Shown here piece after piece: positions 16,514 through 22,491 of a stretch of 64,000 nucleotides of DNA (its first letter is position 1; every line of letters begins with the position of its first letter). The position numbers and the translations under genes are program-made. The stretch covers positions 2,112,001 through 2,176,000 of the forward strand of contig OY762911.1 in assembly GCA_963666565.1 (NCBI GenBank). Reading direction: 5' to 3'. The DNA comes from Thermoanaerobaculia bacterium (lineage in GTDB: Bacteria > Acidobacteriota > Thermoanaerobaculia > Multivoradales > Multivoraceae). Under the pieces are notes generated by a model that did not search any database, was not told the origin of the DNA, and was given only the letters and a program-made list of their open reading frames with translations.

Positions 16514-17125
16514 AGGCCCGGCAGACTGCTACTCGACTCGCGCTGTCAGTGCCGGGCGCCTCAAGGTGGGCGGCCACCGCCACGGGCGCTCCCTGATGTC
16601 GCGCAGGGCCATGGGCTCGCCGTTCCGGACCGGCATGGATTCTTCGCCGGTGATCACGATCTCCGCTTCTTCCAGGCGTTCGATCAGCTCGCGGGCGGGG
16701 TCCGGGCCCATTGGGCACCGAGGGGAGACGCGTGCAACGACCGGCTGCGGGGATGGTCGAACTACACGCCCCGGTCGTCCATGCTGACGGTGAAGTCGCC
16801 CTCGTAGAGCAGGCGGTGGAGCTCGCGGCAGAGGGGCTCGAGGATCAAGAGCTTCGTTTCGCCGCTATCGGCCCTGTGAACGACGTGATGCGCGTCGCAG
16901 TGCCGGGAAAACCACCCAGGAGGCGTCAACCTCATTGCGGAACACTAGGGCGCGGCGGGTCGGCGTCGGGATGGTGCGGGTCTTGCGGCCGACGCGGAGG
17001 ATCCGGCCGGAGTTGTGCTGCATATCGACCTTGCCGGCGCCGCACGCGATGCGCCGGGCCGTCTCATCGCTGACCGGGACGTGGGAGTCGCCGAGCTAGG
17101 CACCGTGGAGGGACGGACCTTCGGA
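16400..17125. repeat. Copy A of a diverged segment: 3' end of the REase gene plus a minus-strand DUF222/HNH remnant
   Basis: Shares blocks with 20285-20967 and 22570-22635, e.g. GCTCGGGCACGTGGCCTCGGC, GGATGTCGCGT, CTGCTACTCG, GCTTCTTCCAGGCGTTCGA, TTCGTTTCGCCGCTATCGGCC, TCGACCTTGCC. Ends approximate. Confidence 0.75.
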
Positions 17126-17454
17126 CCGCGACGAGGTCGACGGCGCTGGGTGTAGAACGTGCCGGCGCTCTTACGCCAATGCCGGCGGATTGGCTCAGAG
17201 CACTGCCGGAAAGAGCCGTCCTGCCCATGAGAGCGGATCAAAGCCGAGTTCCGTGTCGCGATCGTGTGGTACTCTCCACATATGCGCAACTTCGGCTCCG
17301 CTTGCGGAACGGCGTGGATCAAGCTATGGGAGTCGGAGGCAGAGTCGCGGACGGCTCTACTGACCGGCGCCGACGACGCGAACGGAGTGAAGCAGTGACC
17401 GAGCGCTCTGCTTCCATGCAGACCATGAGACGTTCCCCTGACAATGACCTAACG

Positions 17455-17626
17455 AGGCTTCGCCTCAGACCGACGAGCATGTTCGCGGCGGTGGTCGGCC
17501 TCGGCCTTGGCGTCGATCGGACTCCGGTCGCTGCTTCAGCTGCGGAGTGAATCCGCCGTATTGTCGCTCTGCGGCGAAGGTGGCCTTAAGCTGGCCGGTG
17601 AGAAGCCCATCGACCGGAGTCCGCTG
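17455..17626 (+). promoter_or_regulatory. Structured 5' leader of the element; a 13-bp stem sequesters the RBS
   Basis: CGGACTCCGGTCG (17518-17530) is the perfect complement of CGACCGGAGTCCG (17611-17623), which contains the GGAG RBS; extra hairpins GAGGC-TTC-GCCTC and GCGGA-GTGAA-TCCGC. Confidence 0.55.
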
Positions 17627-19228
17627 ATGAAGGTAGCACGCACGGCAGCCGAGGTTCTTGAGGAGCATGTGTCGTTGACGCTGGAGTGCGTCGATCGGAT
17701 GTACCTCAACGTCTACGTACCGGTGCTTCAGCGTGGCGCGGGCGCGGCCTGGTTCTTCCGGGAGGTGCGGGGCGCGCAGGTGCCGTCGTCGGTGCTGATG
17801 GCGCCGATGACGAGGCGGTTCGTGGCCGCGATCAAGGGCTACGCGCGGCAGCATCGGATCGACATCGTCCCGTTTCGGCGCGGCGAGCGCAAGGACGACC
17901 GCACCCGCGAGTACCTTCGCCGGTGGCATGGAGGCGAGGGGGTGCTGTACGTCGGCAAGGCGCAGGAGAAGGCTCGGGTGCTGCGTACCGAGCGTCGTTA
18001 CGACTCGGCGACCGACGCGGGCTATCCGTGGCTGGTGCACTCGACGGCGATGGTCAACCAGTACTACTTCTACGTGTTCGACGACGACTTCGGTCCGTTC
18101 TTCCTGAAGTTCTGCTCGTACTTCCCCTACAACGCCAAGCTGTGCATCAACGGACACGAGTACCTCAAGCGCCAGTTGAGCAAGCGGGGGATCGAGTACG
18201 AGGCGCTGGACAACGGCATCCTGCGCTGCTCGGACCCGGAGGCGATGCAGCGGCTCGCCGACGGCCTCGACGCGGACAAGATCGACGCGCTGCTGCGCAA
18301 GTGGCTGGCTCGCCTGCCGCATCCGTTCTCCGCCGGCGACCGGCGGCGGGGCATCCGCTACGCCGTCTCGATCCTCCAGGCCGAATTCGCCCTGACCCAG
18401 GTCTTCGACCGCCCGGTGCAGGGTCGGGTCTTCTTCGAGGAGGTGCTGCGCGAGCACCTCGACATGGGACGGCCCGAGCACGTGCAGTTGATCTTCAAGC
18501 GCCGCGTCACGCGACGCACCCCCTCGCGGTATCGCACCCGCGTCATTACCGACGGGGTCTCCCCGTCGCTGCACGTCGACTACAAGCACTCGCGCATCAA
18601 GCAGTACCACAAGGAAGGGCGCGCCCTGCGCACCGAGACGGTGATCAACGACACCTACGACTTCGATGTCGGTCGTTTGCTGAGAAACCTCGATGACCTC
18701 AAGAAGGTCGGCTTCGCCGCCAACCGACGCCTGCTCGGCGTCCAAACTCTCAGCCACGACTGTCTGCTCGGAGCCGAAACGCTCGACGATCTGCACCGTC
18801 CGCGGTGCATCTCGGGTCAGCGCGCTTCGGCGCTTCGCTTCGGAGACCGCAGGGTGCAGAGTCTCTTCGCCGCCCTGCTGCGCTTCAGCCTCCTGCCCAA
18901 CGGCTTCCGCAACCGCGACCTGCGGCCCGCGGTCGCCAGTCTGTGCGGACTCACGCCGGACCGCTACGGACCCTCCCGCATGACCTACGACCTGCGCCGA
19001 CTGCGACTGCGGGGAATCGTCGAACGGGTTCCGCGCACCCACCGCTACCGGATCACCGACTGGGGACTGCGCGTAGCGTTCGCCTACCACCGGACCCACG
19101 CCCGAGTGCTCGGCCCCGTCATGTCCGCCACCCTCGACCCGGAAGCCAACGCCCGGCTACGAAGAACCGTCGCCAGCTACGACCGCGAGGTCCAAAGAGC
19201 TTGGCGAGGACAGCGACTCGCAGCCTGA
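17627..19228 (+). CDS. Putative transposase/replication-initiator-like protein with C-terminal winged HTH (533 aa)
   Basis: ATG 17627 with GGAG RBS. No DDE pattern recognised; RIKQYHKEGRALRTETVIN resembles the YxK...RxE core of Rep_trans/phage gII-X initiators; tail GFRNRDLR...MTYDLRRLRLRGIVERVPRTHRYRIT is wHTH-like. Confidence 0.7.
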   Translation: MKVARTAAEVLEEHVSLTLECVDRMYLNVYVPVLQRGAGAAWFFREVRGAQVPSSVLMAPMTRRFVAAIKGYARQHRIDIVPFRRGERKDDRTREYLRRWHGGEGVLYVGKAQEKARVLRTERRYDSATDAGYPWLVHSTAMVNQYYFYVFDDDFGPFFLKFCSYFPYNAKLCINGHEYLKRQLSKRGIEYEALDNGILRCSDPEAMQRLADGLDADKIDALLRKWLARLPHPFSAGDRRRGIRYAVSILQAEFALTQVFDRPVQGRVFFEEVLREHLDMGRPEHVQLIFKRRVTRRTPSRYRTRVITDGVSPSLHVDYKHSRIKQYHKEGRALRTETVINDTYDFDVGRLLRNLDDLKKVGFAANRRLLGVQTLSHDCLLGAETLDDLHRPRCISGQRASALRFGDRRVQSLFAALLRFSLLPNGFRNRDLRPAVASLCGLTPDRYGPSRMTYDLRRLRLRGIVERVPRTHRYRITDWGLRVAFAYHRTHARVLGPVMSATLDPEANARLRRTVASYDREVQRAWRGQRLAA

Positions 19229-19389
19229 GGCCGACCTCCGTCACGCCGAATCGACACGGACACCCCGAACCAAACTTGACTCAACTGTTAAGACGCCCCT
19301 TGTTCAAGGAGTCTAGGGAAGTTCGCGGTTTGTGGGGCCGCCCGGGAGCGTCGGAACGAGGAAGCAGCTTGCAGGTCGTGACGACTGGG

Positions 19390-20286: not shown

Positions 20287-20967
20287 TCTGGCCGGCAGAC
20301 GCGAAGTCGTGCTGGAAAGCGGTAACAGCCTATGGAGGCTCGGGCACGTGGCCTCGGCCCACCGGATGTCGCGTTGAAGGACGACGCGAGGAACTGAGGG
20401 CCCCGTCAGGCTGCTACTCGGCTTGGGCCGCCCGCGACGGACTCCTTTCCCGCGCCACCGCCGCCTCAAGGCGCGGTGCGGCCCGCCACAGGCACTCCAT
20501 GACGGAGCGCAGGTCCATCGGCTTGCCGTCCCAAGCCCGGCATCGACTCTTTGCCGGCGATCAGGATGCCCGCTTCTTCCAGGCGTTCGACCAGTTCGCC
20601 GACGGGGTTCGGGCCCATCTGGGGGTGGCGAGGACACTCGTGCAGCGGCCGGCCGCGGGGATGTGCGAACCGCACGCGCCCCGGTCGTCCATGCGGACTG
20701 TGAAGAGGCCTTAGTGGAGTAGGCGATGGCTTCGGCTGCAGAGGGGCAGCAGGTTCCACAGGTTCGTTTCGCCGCTATCGGCCAGTGAACGAGGAAATGC
20801 GCGTCGCTGTGCCGGGAAAGAGCGGTCCGGAAAGCGGCACCCTTGGTCGCGGAGCTCCCTGGCGCGGAAGTTGGGCGGCCCGATGGCGCGCTCTTTCGGC
20901 CAACGCCGGGGATCCGGCCGGCGCCGTGTGGCATCTCGACCTTGCCCGCGTCGAAGGCGGTGCGCCG
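20285..20967. repeat. Copy B of the diverged REase-tail/HNH-remnant segment, interrupted by IS3 copy 1 and continuing at about 22570-22635
   Basis: Minus strand reads ELRDQGCRFP...ADSGETNLWNLLPLCSRSHRLLH, a decayed HNH motif of the DUF222 type; alignable by eye to 16400-17125. Confidence 0.75.
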
Positions 20968-21007: not shown

Positions 21008-22006
21008 TTACTGAGCCATCTCCGATGCTTCGGGGCTCGGCTTGTTGATCCAGACGGCCTGAGGCAGGGGTTGGTGCATCGGCTCGCCGCCGACGAATCG
21101 TTCCGGGTGGCGTCTCCAGGCGGCGCTCAGCGCTCGCTGGCGCTGTTCGATCGCGGCTTGGGCCCGGCCGTAGTGGACGGTCTCCGGAGTCAGCATGGCG
21201 ATGCCGGCATGCCGGTGCTCGGTGTTGTACCAAGGGAAGAAGGACCTGCAGTAGCCGGTCGCCGCGTCCTGGTCGGGGAAGCGGTCGGGAAAGCCGGGGT
21301 GGTACTTCAGGGTCTTGAACTGGGCTTCGGAGAAGGGGTTGTCGTCGCTGACGCGAGGTCGGCCCAGGGATCGGTTCACGCCGAGGCGGGCGAGCAGTTG
21401 GGCGGTACCCTGGCTGGTCATGGGCGCGCCCCGGTCGGAGTGCAGGGTGAGCACCGAGGGTTTCACGCCGTGCTTGAGGCAGGTCTCCTCGATGAGCCTC
21501 TGGGCGAGCGCGGCATTCTCGCGGTCGGCAACCATCCAGCCGACCGCGTAGCGGCTGAAAAGGTCGAGCAGGACGTAGAGGTAGTAGTAGCTCCAGGGCC
21601 GCGGGCCGAGCAGCCTGGTGATGTCCCACGACCACACCTGGTTGGGCGCGGTGGCGACCAACTCCGGCTTGGCGTAGGGCGGGTGGACCCGCTGGTTGCG
21701 ACGGTCCTTCACCTCCCCGTTCGCGCCCAGGATGCGGTACATCGTGCGTTCCGAGCACAGGTACCGGCCCTCGTCCAGCAGCGTCGCCACCACCTCCGCC
21801 GGCGAGCGATCCACGAACCGGGGAGACGCGAGCGTCGCCTCGACCCGCTCCCGCTCGATCTCGCTCAGCGCCCGGGCGGGCGCGGGTCGGGGCAGCTGGC
21901 GCCCGGGAGCGGGCCTCGCTCGACGGTAGAAGGTCGATCGCGACACGCCCAGCGCCCGGCACGCCGGCGCGACGCCGACCTTGCTTGCCAGGGACCGGGC
22001 CGCCAT
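21008..22006 (-). CDS. IS3-family transposase OrfB (DDE integrase core)
   Basis: WSWDIT, LHSDRG, DNPFSEAQFKTLK; ATG overlaps the orfA stop (TGATG); slippery G-GGA-AAA at 22054-22060. Confidence 0.92.
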   Translation of the reverse strand: MAARSLASKVGVAPACRALGVSRSTFYRRARPAPGRQLPRPAPARALSEIERERVEATLASPRFVDRSPAEVVATLLDEGRYLCSERTMYRILGANGEVKDRRNQRVHPPYAKPELVATAPNQVWSWDITRLLGPRPWSYYYLYVLLDLFSRYAVGWMVADRENAALAQRLIEETCLKHGVKPSVLTLHSDRGAPMTSQGTAQLLARLGVNRSLGRPRVSDDNPFSEAQFKTLKYHPGFPDRFPDQDAATGYCRSFFPWYNTEHRHAGIAMLTPETVHYGRAQAAIEQRQRALSAAWRRHPERFVGGEPMHQPLPQAVWINKPSPEASEMAQ

Positions 22007-22491
22007 CAGCAGTCCTTCCCGTCTTCGAGGCTGAATCCCAGCAGCCCTGCAACTTTTCCCTGCACGTCCAGGATCGTGTGGGCGGCGGCGAGCTCCCTCT
22101 CCAGCCGCTTCACCTTGGCCTCCAGCCGCTTCACCTTCGGCGCCAGAGGGTTGGCCTCGGTCGGCTTGCGGCCCCGCTTCTTCGGCCGCAGACCGGAAAG
22201 CGCGCCCTCTCGCCGCGCCTTGCGCCAGTTGGCCAGGTGCGAGCTGTACAGACCCTCTCGCCGAAGCAGACGGCCCACTTCGCCGCGGTCCGTGCATCGG
22301 TCCGCCTCCTCCAGAATCCGCAGACGGTACTCCGCCGTGAACTGCCGTCTGGTCGGCTTCGCCACGACCTCCGGGTCGGGAACACCCCCCGCGGGCGACG
22401 CGCCGGCCCCGGGGGCCTCGTCGCTCCGCTCCTCACCCCCCGGGGCCGGGAGCTCCGGGCCACCCCAACGTCTCTGCTCTCGTCTCGCCAT
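22006..22491 (-). CDS. IS3-family transposase OrfA (HTH plus leucine zipper)
   Basis: GGAGG RBS; RRQFTAEYRLRILEEAD...LLRREGLYSSHLANWRK. Confidence 0.9.
   Translation of the reverse strand: MARREQRRWGGPELPAPGGEERSDEAPGAGASPAGGVPDPEVVAKPTRRQFTAEYRLRILEEADRCTDRGEVGRLLRREGLYSSHLANWRKARREGALSGLRPKKRGRKPTEANPLAPKVKRLEAKVKRLERELAAAHTILDVQGKVAGLLGFSLEDGKDC

Follow-up and report, generated by a model that had tools for sequence, protein, structure and literature searches.

A widespread insertion sequence that targets CTAG and may encode a Rep_trans-like tyrosine transposase

Replication initiators of the Rep_trans type have, in the portions of the two accounts drawn on here, a central sheet of 2 x 5 strands, with the catalytic tyrosine on one of them (beta-9 in the model of RelSt3), three metal-binding acidic residues, each on its own strand, and the motifs N' (D), I (RxD), II (T/SxY/ExG), III (YxKxxE), and IV (W/LxRxE); nicking is abolished when the tyrosine, the lysine at +2 from it, or the three acidic ligands are mutated (PMC6499999; PMC5714925). 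The corresponding portion of the 2017 review gives plasmid/phage replication and conjugal transfer as their roles, and transposition is not listed there (PMC5714925). The subject of this report is a 1,868-bp element in a 64,000-nucleotide stretch (the window) of the genome of a Thermoanaerobaculia bacterium (GenBank assembly GCA_963666565.1, contig OY762911.1, positions 2,112,001 to 2,176,000); it encodes a 533-amino-acid (aa) protein, P0001. We know of no enzyme of the rolling-circle plasmid initiator type that moves transposons. The element is a real, intact insertion sequence (IS) of a very widespread family. Our analysis leans, with appreciable doubt, toward an autonomous insertion sequence of an undescribed family (window 17449-19316) whose transposase is a metal-dependent tyrosine nuclease with a Rep_trans-like fold.

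A whole-genome search of the host genome (G000; 4.79 Mb, a single contig) found six loci that encode the 533-aa protein, five at 100% identity and one at 98%, with the frame open in all six. Gap-free comparison of these loci and BLAST define a common repeat unit, window 17449-19316, in which identity begins at CTAACGAGG (17449) and ends at ...GGAGTCTAG (19316); the flanks of the six copies are unrelated to one another. In four public sequencing runs (three samples, one study), contigs break at exactly these two positions, and read depth inside the element is ~6x that of the flanks. All six copies have CTA at both ends. An initial annotation, made from the sequence alone, had described a mobile element at 17449-19315 outside the standard IS families, with an intact 533-aa open reading frame (ORF) and CTA at both ends. 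Because the limits of six-locus identity fall at 17449 and 19316, its coordinates and the CTA at both ends are correct; the span is exact for an element that ends in CTA, and the block common to all six copies extends one base further. The ORF is free of stops as described (window 17627-19228, + strand), is the sole gene of the element, and fills 86% of it; a longer TTG-initiated frame is not needed, because homologues begin at the same methionine. Mobility, and a place outside the annotated families, are borne out by the six copies, empty sites, miniature derivatives, a patchy distribution, and the lack of a match to any transposase model. Other genomic copies and empty sites had been named as the means to fix the ends, and both were found, the latter in relatives; with six copies and two clean empty sites, the ORF is not a single-copy, syntenic gene. 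The features of the window copy are as follows.

17449-19316, + strand: whole repeat unit (six-locus comparison, BLAST, empty sites, contig breaks with ~6x depth)
17449-17452, + strand: left tetranucleotide CTAA, its CTA matching the target CTAG (six copies, empty sites, 70 junctions)
17449-17477, + strand: left-end block CTAR-CGAGGC-nnn-GCCTC-AGACCGACGAG (alignment A2 of 42 left ends, multi-copy sets)
17454-17466, + strand: potential 5-bp hairpin GAGGC-TTC-GCCTC (DNA fold, pairing across 42 sequences)
17627-19228, + strand: putative transposase gene, 533 aa, P0001 (ORF, six copies, homologues)
17627-18676, + strand: predicted catalytic region, about aa 1-350 (alignments A1 and A4, models, fold searches)
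18605-18607, + strand: codon of Tyr327, candidate nucleophile (invariant in 31 of 31 sequences; strand from the model)
18971-19132, + strand: C-terminal winged helix-turn-helix (HTH), about aa 449-502 (weak profile hits, MarR-family structures)
19272-19283, + strand: right-end conserved box AAACTTGACTCA (alignment A3 of 42 right ends)
19304-19308, + strand: right-end conserved TCAAG (alignment A3), 4-5 nt before the terminal CTAG
19313-19316, + strand: right tetranucleotide CTAG, the target junction (six copies, multi-copy sets, empty sites)

The element inserts at CTAG, leaving CTA on both sides and duplicating nothing else, and its empty sites are exact. The flanks of all six copies were searched in 30 other genomes of the genus. 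For copy G000:4483696-4485563, genome G043 carries the empty site ...GCGCAAGCTC-CTAG-ACTCGCC..., where the occupied site reads ...gtgcaagctc-CTAA-[CGAGG...GGAGT]-CTAG-actcacc...; for copy G000:2432165-2434032, genomes G004 and G020 carry ...GACTA(T/C)CA-CTAG-CGC..., and the occupied site reads ...gactacca-CTAA-[...]-CTAG-agcagg.... At both of these clean empty sites the target is CTAG and the net gain 1,864 bp, with CTA on either side and no further duplication; the prediction that removing the element restores ...CTA-G... thus matches two real sites. The fourth base of the left CTAA is element-borne, since the empty sites have G there; the bases of the right CTAG, the junction with the target, may come from the target or from the element. 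The copy at 3.15 Mb has only paralogous sites, the closest of which have CCGG exactly at the predicted CTAG, with fitting lengths. It interrupts one member of a multi-copy gene family (G000:3152255-3152976; about 10 paralogues, e.g., 3068111, 4346778, and 1749021), the paralogues of the interrupted gene being 86-89% identical over 722 bp. For the window copy and the one at 2.19 Mb, the 30 genomes contain no orthologous flank. A flanking duplication of 6, 3, or 2 bp beyond the CTA was considered and rejected; it fits the copy at 130 kb only and fails for the other five.

Family-wide, the tetranucleotide at 70 independent left junctions is CTAA in 39 cases, CTAG in 24, and another in 7. Upstream of the junction, A is found at -4 in 46/70 and at -5 in 40/70 (background A 19%), and the right flank has Y at +1 in 37/55 and G at +2 in 29/55, with no mirror-image TT. 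The preferred target, AANNN-CTAG-YG, is asymmetric, because its right flank mirrors none of the A-rich -5/-4 positions. It resembles the predicted right-left junction of the element, with AA upstream, CTAG, and YG like the CG that opens the left end. A weak hairpin formed by the flanks had been suggested as the target; it exists at the window copy only and is absent at the other five sites, the target being CTAG with A-rich -4/-5. CTAG occurs at 1,299 sites in genome G000, 10% of expectation, and CTAG, CTAA, and TTAG stand at 6-10% of the counts expected from base composition; given this strong depletion of CTAG, few sites are open to such elements.

The two ends of the element differ from each other, and each is almost unchanged from phylum to phylum (alignments A2 and A3, 42 sequences each); the same boundaries are defined by multi-copy sets in eight other genomes and in G034. 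The left end reads CTA(A/G)-CGAGGC-nnn-GCCTC-AGACCGACGAG, and the block is presumed to be the recognition and cleavage site of the transposase. The right end consists of the box AAACTTGACTCA, about 19 variable nt, TCAAG, 4-5 nt, and CTAG; TCAAG is the reverse complement of CTTGA inside the box. The reported lack of terminal inverted repeats agrees with direct reading of the two ends, although no dedicated repeat search was run. The potential left hairpin starts 1 nt after the tetranucleotide, and its loop varies while the stem is kept: the stem positions are paired in 99.5% of cells across the 42 sequences, versus 20-54% when the stem is slid. Covariation is minimal because the stem hardly varies, with a single compensatory change in A2 and a handful in the miniatures. 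No consensus secondary structure was predicted for the right end, and DNA folding of either end was no better than that of shuffled sequences. A promoter scan found none, and Rfam at E <= 1 gave no credible family within the element, a chance small nucleolar RNA match aside.

Miniature derivatives of 121-181 bp, with the left and right ends only, are present in genomes of the genus (seven loci examined, two of which are the same locus in two genomes). Loci L028-L035 of genus genomes carry such miniatures; similar pieces occur in G000 at 1761758, 989237, 3781719, 3924046, 4451247, and other positions, and the miniature interiors carry GC-rich palindromic repeats typical of the genome's REP-like (repetitive extragenic palindromic) sequences. 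Copies also abut one another. In G034 there is a full head-to-tail tandem that shares one CTAG, in a gammaproteobacterium a 67-bp right-end remnant abuts a full copy with a single CTAG shared, another such remnant is found in L115, and L033 holds a tandem of miniature copies. Three copies in a Terriglobia genome (L075 versus L076 and L077) are 99.9% identical, and the only two positions that distinguish them are terminal, one being base four of the left tetranucleotide (G versus A), the other base five counted back from the right CTAG. Such a pattern hints at changes in the termini during transposition.

The protein was found in 2/24 other genomes of the genus and in 18/301 sampled Acidobacteriota genomes (counting G000 and one unpublished genome), a patchy distribution. 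A word-index search returned at least 8,000 candidates at E <= 1e-3 (8,000/8,000 scored), and among the 120 matches listed there was no Pfam domain and no name beyond "hypothetical protein." An exhaustive search gave 11,019 representatives (clustered at 50% identity), and E was 1e-30 or lower for 1,236. Plasmid matches comprise 27 records, and the annotated ones among those listed are called "hypothetical" or "uncharacterized" protein; one distant plasmid homologue (H17) is annotated as an "ArsR family transcriptional regulator." A scan of one genome per species confirmed at least 586 loci, and the 80 kept come from Acidobacteriota, Pseudomonadota, Myxococcota, Verrucomicrobiota, Chloroflexota, Planctomycetota, Gemmatimonadota, Actinomycetota, Cyanobacteriota, and Spirochaetota. 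In a tree of the window protein and 25 of the 80 loci (chosen for a full-length ORF with the expected start; one chosen row was dropped as too short), members of different phyla are paired as sisters with good support, Vicinamibacterales and Pseudomonadales at 100/100 among them, with the caveat that the genomes were binned from metagenomes. No description of the element or its end motifs was found in full-text literature searches (supplements lay outside their scope). Two copies of a relative in a sister species, 83-85% identical (G023:C1:2886196-2887790 and 4009522-4011116; L007 and L011), each fall into two frames (residues 1-360 and 359-533), as if by a shared frameshift, whether through decay of the pair or as a programmed shift.

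P0001 has no match in Pfam or NCBIfam, in accord with the initial annotation, which recognized no DDE, HUH, serine-, or tyrosine-recombinase motif, and Pfam gave none for 31 homologues either. Its first 440 residues have no explanatory match in Pfam, NCBIfam, PHROG, or PDB sequences, and searches of the PDB (by sequence and by profile) and of the ESM Atlas returned weak winged-helix matches or nothing. The weak winged-helix matches (Pfam, PDB profile, PHROG) fall at about residues 445-520, and MarR-type structures match the C-terminus of the model with probability 0.94-0.99; the C-terminal winged HTH proposed earlier is supported by both. This domain presumably binds the conserved end boxes. 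Alignments A1 and A4, which reach down to 27% identity, identify the following invariant polar residues: D23, R24, E114, Y147, D152, Y165, N175, N196, Q251, E253, K325, Y327, K329, R335, E337, and D345. Tyr327, invariant in 31/31 sequences (A1), lies in KQYHKEGRALRTE (residues 325-337) and is a candidate catalytic nucleophile; six invariant acidic residues beside the invariant Tyr-x-Lys suggest metal-dependent nuclease chemistry.

AlphaFold2 gave models of good confidence, the full-length protein with a predicted local distance difference test score (pLDDT) of 87.3 and a predicted template modeling score (pTM) of 0.76, and residues 1-400 with pLDDT 89.3 and pTM 0.85. The first lobe of the model has strands at 15-30, 105-125, 132-152, 156-163, and 170-175 and is followed by a helical insert; the second has strands at 246-260, 304-309, 312-319, 322-329, and 333-340 and is followed by a helical region and the winged helix at about 449-502. 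Of the long strands, the ninth (322-329) carries Y327-x-K329 and the tenth (333-340) R335-x-E337, while D23, E114, D152, and E253 are each on a different strand. The invariant D23-R24, E114, and D152 on separate strands of the N-terminal lobe are candidate counterparts of the N'/I metal site.

The closest known proteins are those of the Rep_trans family (PF02486: pT181 RepC, pC221 RepD, RepSTK1) and the MOBT relaxases (RelSt3, Tn916 Orf20, ICEBs1 NicK), with RepSTK1 from plasmid pSTK1 (4CIJ) the only consistent match in the PDB. As far as the source texts used here describe them, these appear to share with P0001 a tyrosine on a strand in Y-x-K, a hydrophobic-R-x-E on the next strand, and a two-lobed ten-strand sheet, and P0001 also has candidate acidic residues on separate strands; MOBT relaxases also have an added HTH DNA-binding domain, theirs N-terminal and that of P0001 C-terminal. 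P0001 differs in being larger (533 aa versus about 270-400), in having a much shorter loop between the tyrosine strand and the R-x-E strand, and in its setting, a chromosomal element of 1.9 kb that is present in several copies, has two defined ends, and targets CTAG, rather than a plasmid origin or the transfer origin (oriT) of an integrative and conjugative element (ICE). In fold searches with the 1-400 model, ranks 1-4 are chains A-D of 4CIJ (RepSTK1) at E 9.2e-4 to 2.8e-3 and probability 0.82-0.95, and every other match has probability <= 0.47. With the full-length model no PDB chain is found at E <= 1e-3; an ARO/CYC di-domain protein comes first (probability 0.57), and the four chains of 4CIJ follow at ranks 2-5 (E 1.9e-3 to 5.4e-3, probability 0.72-0.82, template modeling (TM) score by target 0.27-0.28). 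Among predicted viral structures the best matches are unnamed proteins (top E 1.5e-6), TBP-like proteins, and VETF-like proteins, with an inovirus G2P replication protein at rank 35. From these matches the fold is read as a two-lobed beta saddle. The nearest solved protein is a Rep_trans nickase, at a level that suggests homology and falls short of proof. P0001 most likely works like a Rep_trans protein, and the transposase is probably a Rep_trans-like tyrosine nuclease.

Several results weigh against this reading. The structural resemblance to 4CIJ is weak (TM by target length 0.26-0.33, root-mean-square deviation 9-14 A, E near 1e-3), and double-lobed sheets of the ARO/CYC and TBP-like kinds are also among the fold matches. 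PF02486 matches neither P0001 nor anything else in the genome. Comparison of the family profile by hhalign with a pT181 RepC fragment gave a probability of 0.1%, as did comparison with a 9-row Rep_trans alignment (A5); the Rep_trans profile is shallow, because 120 RepC relatives are all at least 86% identical. Relative to motif III, Y327-x-K329 has E at Y+3 and none at Y+5, while the likeness of A/L-L-R335-T-E337 to motif IV was judged by eye, without superposition, and the loop is shorter than that of RepC. Motifs N', I (RxD), and II could not be mapped on P0001, which has no RxD. As for the DNA, orthologous empty sites of the 130-kb copy in G041 and G003 are 6 nt shorter than predicted, with CTAGTC present once and not twice. 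Miniature L030 has CCGG instead of CTAG at both ends, which is easier to reconcile with a short core, duplicated or shared, than with a fixed CTA carried by the element. The right-left circular junction is absent from the contigs of the four runs, though contigs are unable to reveal one; no nick was observed, and the six copies are oriented 3:3 relative to replication, too few (n=6) to speak of bias. Because sequence methods see nothing, P0001 is not filed as a PF02486 member. The catalytic tyrosine of Rep_trans type proposed in the initial annotation thus has the best available fold reading on its side, with the KQY tyrosine invariant and on a strand and 4CIJ first for the catalytic region, while the Pfam Rep_trans and hhalign comparisons are negative and the TM scores weak.

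For the enzymatic mechanism we infer the following. A catalytic region of ~350 aa at the N-terminus, a two-lobed ten-strand sheet most like Rep_trans initiators and MOBT relaxases, would be followed by a helical linker and the C-terminal winged helix, the latter sitting on the end boxes. Tyr327 would cut one strand at CTA|R in each of three places, the two ends of the element and the target, and form a covalent phosphotyrosine link; K329 would assist, as would a metal bound by invariant acidic residues (D23, E114 or D152, and E337 are the candidates). Nicking and joining would proceed via a circular, probably single-stranded, intermediate with the junction ...GGAGT-CTAA-CGAGG..., akin to the "peel and paste" of IS200/IS605 or to IS91-type rolling-circle transposition, carried out by a different enzyme fold. 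The initial annotation had offered a rolling-circle or peel-and-paste element; the mobile element is confirmed, and rolling-circle, peel-and-paste, and circle-based site-specific recombination are all compatible with the data.

The resemblance to IS200/IS605 lies in the absence of inverted repeats, unlike ends, a potential hairpin beside the presumed left cleavage site, exact empty sites, insertion by a specific short sequence without conventional duplication, and the tyrosine-plus-metal chemistry proposed in both. In contrast to those elements, no HUH/Y1_Tnp domain is found (Pfam, NCBIfam), the protein is ~4x larger and has a winged helix, there is no conserved right-end hairpin, the same CTA flanks both ends, and no orientation bias is seen (n=6). 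IS91, ISCR, and Helitron elements likewise lack inverted repeats and target duplication and have a conserved junction tetranucleotide, and the head-to-tail arrays are compatible with read-through. The terminus of Helitrons reads CTRR, in many cases CTAG, and they have a subterminal 3' hairpin. The present family differs from this group in having no HUH or Y2 motif (Pfam, NCBIfam) and no helicase; both ends are sharp in all copies, and one-ended capture of flanking DNA was not seen.

Whether the family adds one more mechanistic class to the DDE, DEDD, HUH, serine, and tyrosine-recombinase types known among prokaryotic transposons, with a Rep_trans-type nuclease as transposase, we regard as evenly poised. 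We give equal weight for and against to the idea that its enzyme is a TBP-like beta saddle with a strand-borne tyrosine, recruited from rolling-circle replication or conjugation, and there is about an even chance that it performs a seamless, CTA|G-specific single-strand cut-and-join that has spread to no fewer than eight bacterial phyla yet gone unannotated.

The strongest competitor, which we consider unlikely but worth weighing, is a conservative site-specific recombinase: a double-stranded circle whose core (TA or CTA in CTAA) recombines with a matching core in CTAG, so that, as in IS607 (serine) or IS110 (DEDD), the core ends up at both junctions. It explains the exact empty sites, the core on both sides, and the unlike ends equally well; the CCGG at both ends of L030 is the covariation expected if the cores of circle and target must match, and the likeness between the target and the predicted right-left junction (AA, CTAG, YG) is also in its favor. 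No serine, tyrosine, or DEDD recombinase domain is found, however (Pfam, NCBIfam), nor, in distinction from IS110/IS1111, a DEDD Pfam match or an Rfam guide-RNA family in the element. The invariant acidic residues and Tyr-x-Lys point instead to a metal-dependent nuclease, the best structural match is a single-strand nickase, and the target preference is asymmetric.

C-TA-G with TA on either side is the classic IS630 target pattern, and IS630 itself inserts at CTAG. Both the CTAG target and the TA (or CTA) on both sides of our element would follow if a divergent RNase H-fold transposase of the IS630/Tc1-mariner kind moved it by DDE cut-and-paste or copy-out, duplicating TA (or CTA); D23, D152, and E253 can be read as a DDE triad, and L030 with CCGG at both ends resembles a true target duplication. 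Such a mechanism is improbable because of the unlike ends and the fold: there are no terminal inverted repeats, the ends differing throughout the conserved stretch; none of the DDE, rve, or other transposase models gives a match; and the model is a ten-strand antiparallel sheet, with no RNase H fold among the fold-search matches listed. Slightly less probable still is that the ORF is a DNA-binding passenger or regulator of a repeat moved in trans by another enzyme. Its C-terminal winged helix is the only part with sequence-level matches, and H17 bears a regulator annotation. As the only gene, filling most of the element, the ORF is nevertheless intact in all six copies and travels with the same ends across phyla; its invariant residues lie in the 350-aa non-HTH region, and miniatures without it retain both ends, as expected of non-autonomous derivatives.

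Public data contain more than 11,000 clusters of this protein (50% identity), and the annotated examples among the matches listed are nearly all "hypothetical"; annotation pipelines therefore miss a common insertion sequence together with its miniatures and gene disruptions. If the transposase is a Rep_trans-type nuclease, plasmid replication initiators and conjugative relaxases would be linked to transposition, and a new enzyme class would be added to the transposases. The short asymmetric ends, the exact insertion at a 4-bp site, and the single protein make the system easy to test, and it could be of interest as a DNA-insertion tool.

Six-nucleotide tandem duplications of the form NCTAGN occur at CTAG target sites without any element; thus G005 (L140, about 1785-1800) has CTAGCACTAG where G004 and G020 have a single CTAG. 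These could be a footprint or a slippage event. At the 130-kb copy (G000:130132-132000), the doubling of CTAGTC must have preceded or accompanied insertion.

Mobile DNA accumulates around the window copy. The "decayed surroundings" of the initial annotation were checked in part: five neighboring ORFs lack a Pfam match, and an IS3-family transposase gene (domains rve, rve_3, and HTH_32) lies 1.7 kb downstream at window 21008-22297 on the - strand. Flanking DNA at window 16557-17106 and 20426-20725 is repeated at many places in most genomes of the genus with 67-74% identity, and the window copy may sit inside or between other mobile or repeated units. Just upstream of the 4.48-Mb copy is a ~140-bp repeat (L005:537-680; G000:4483510-4483653) that is very abundant in the genome and the genus, with more than 250 matches in 31 genomes.

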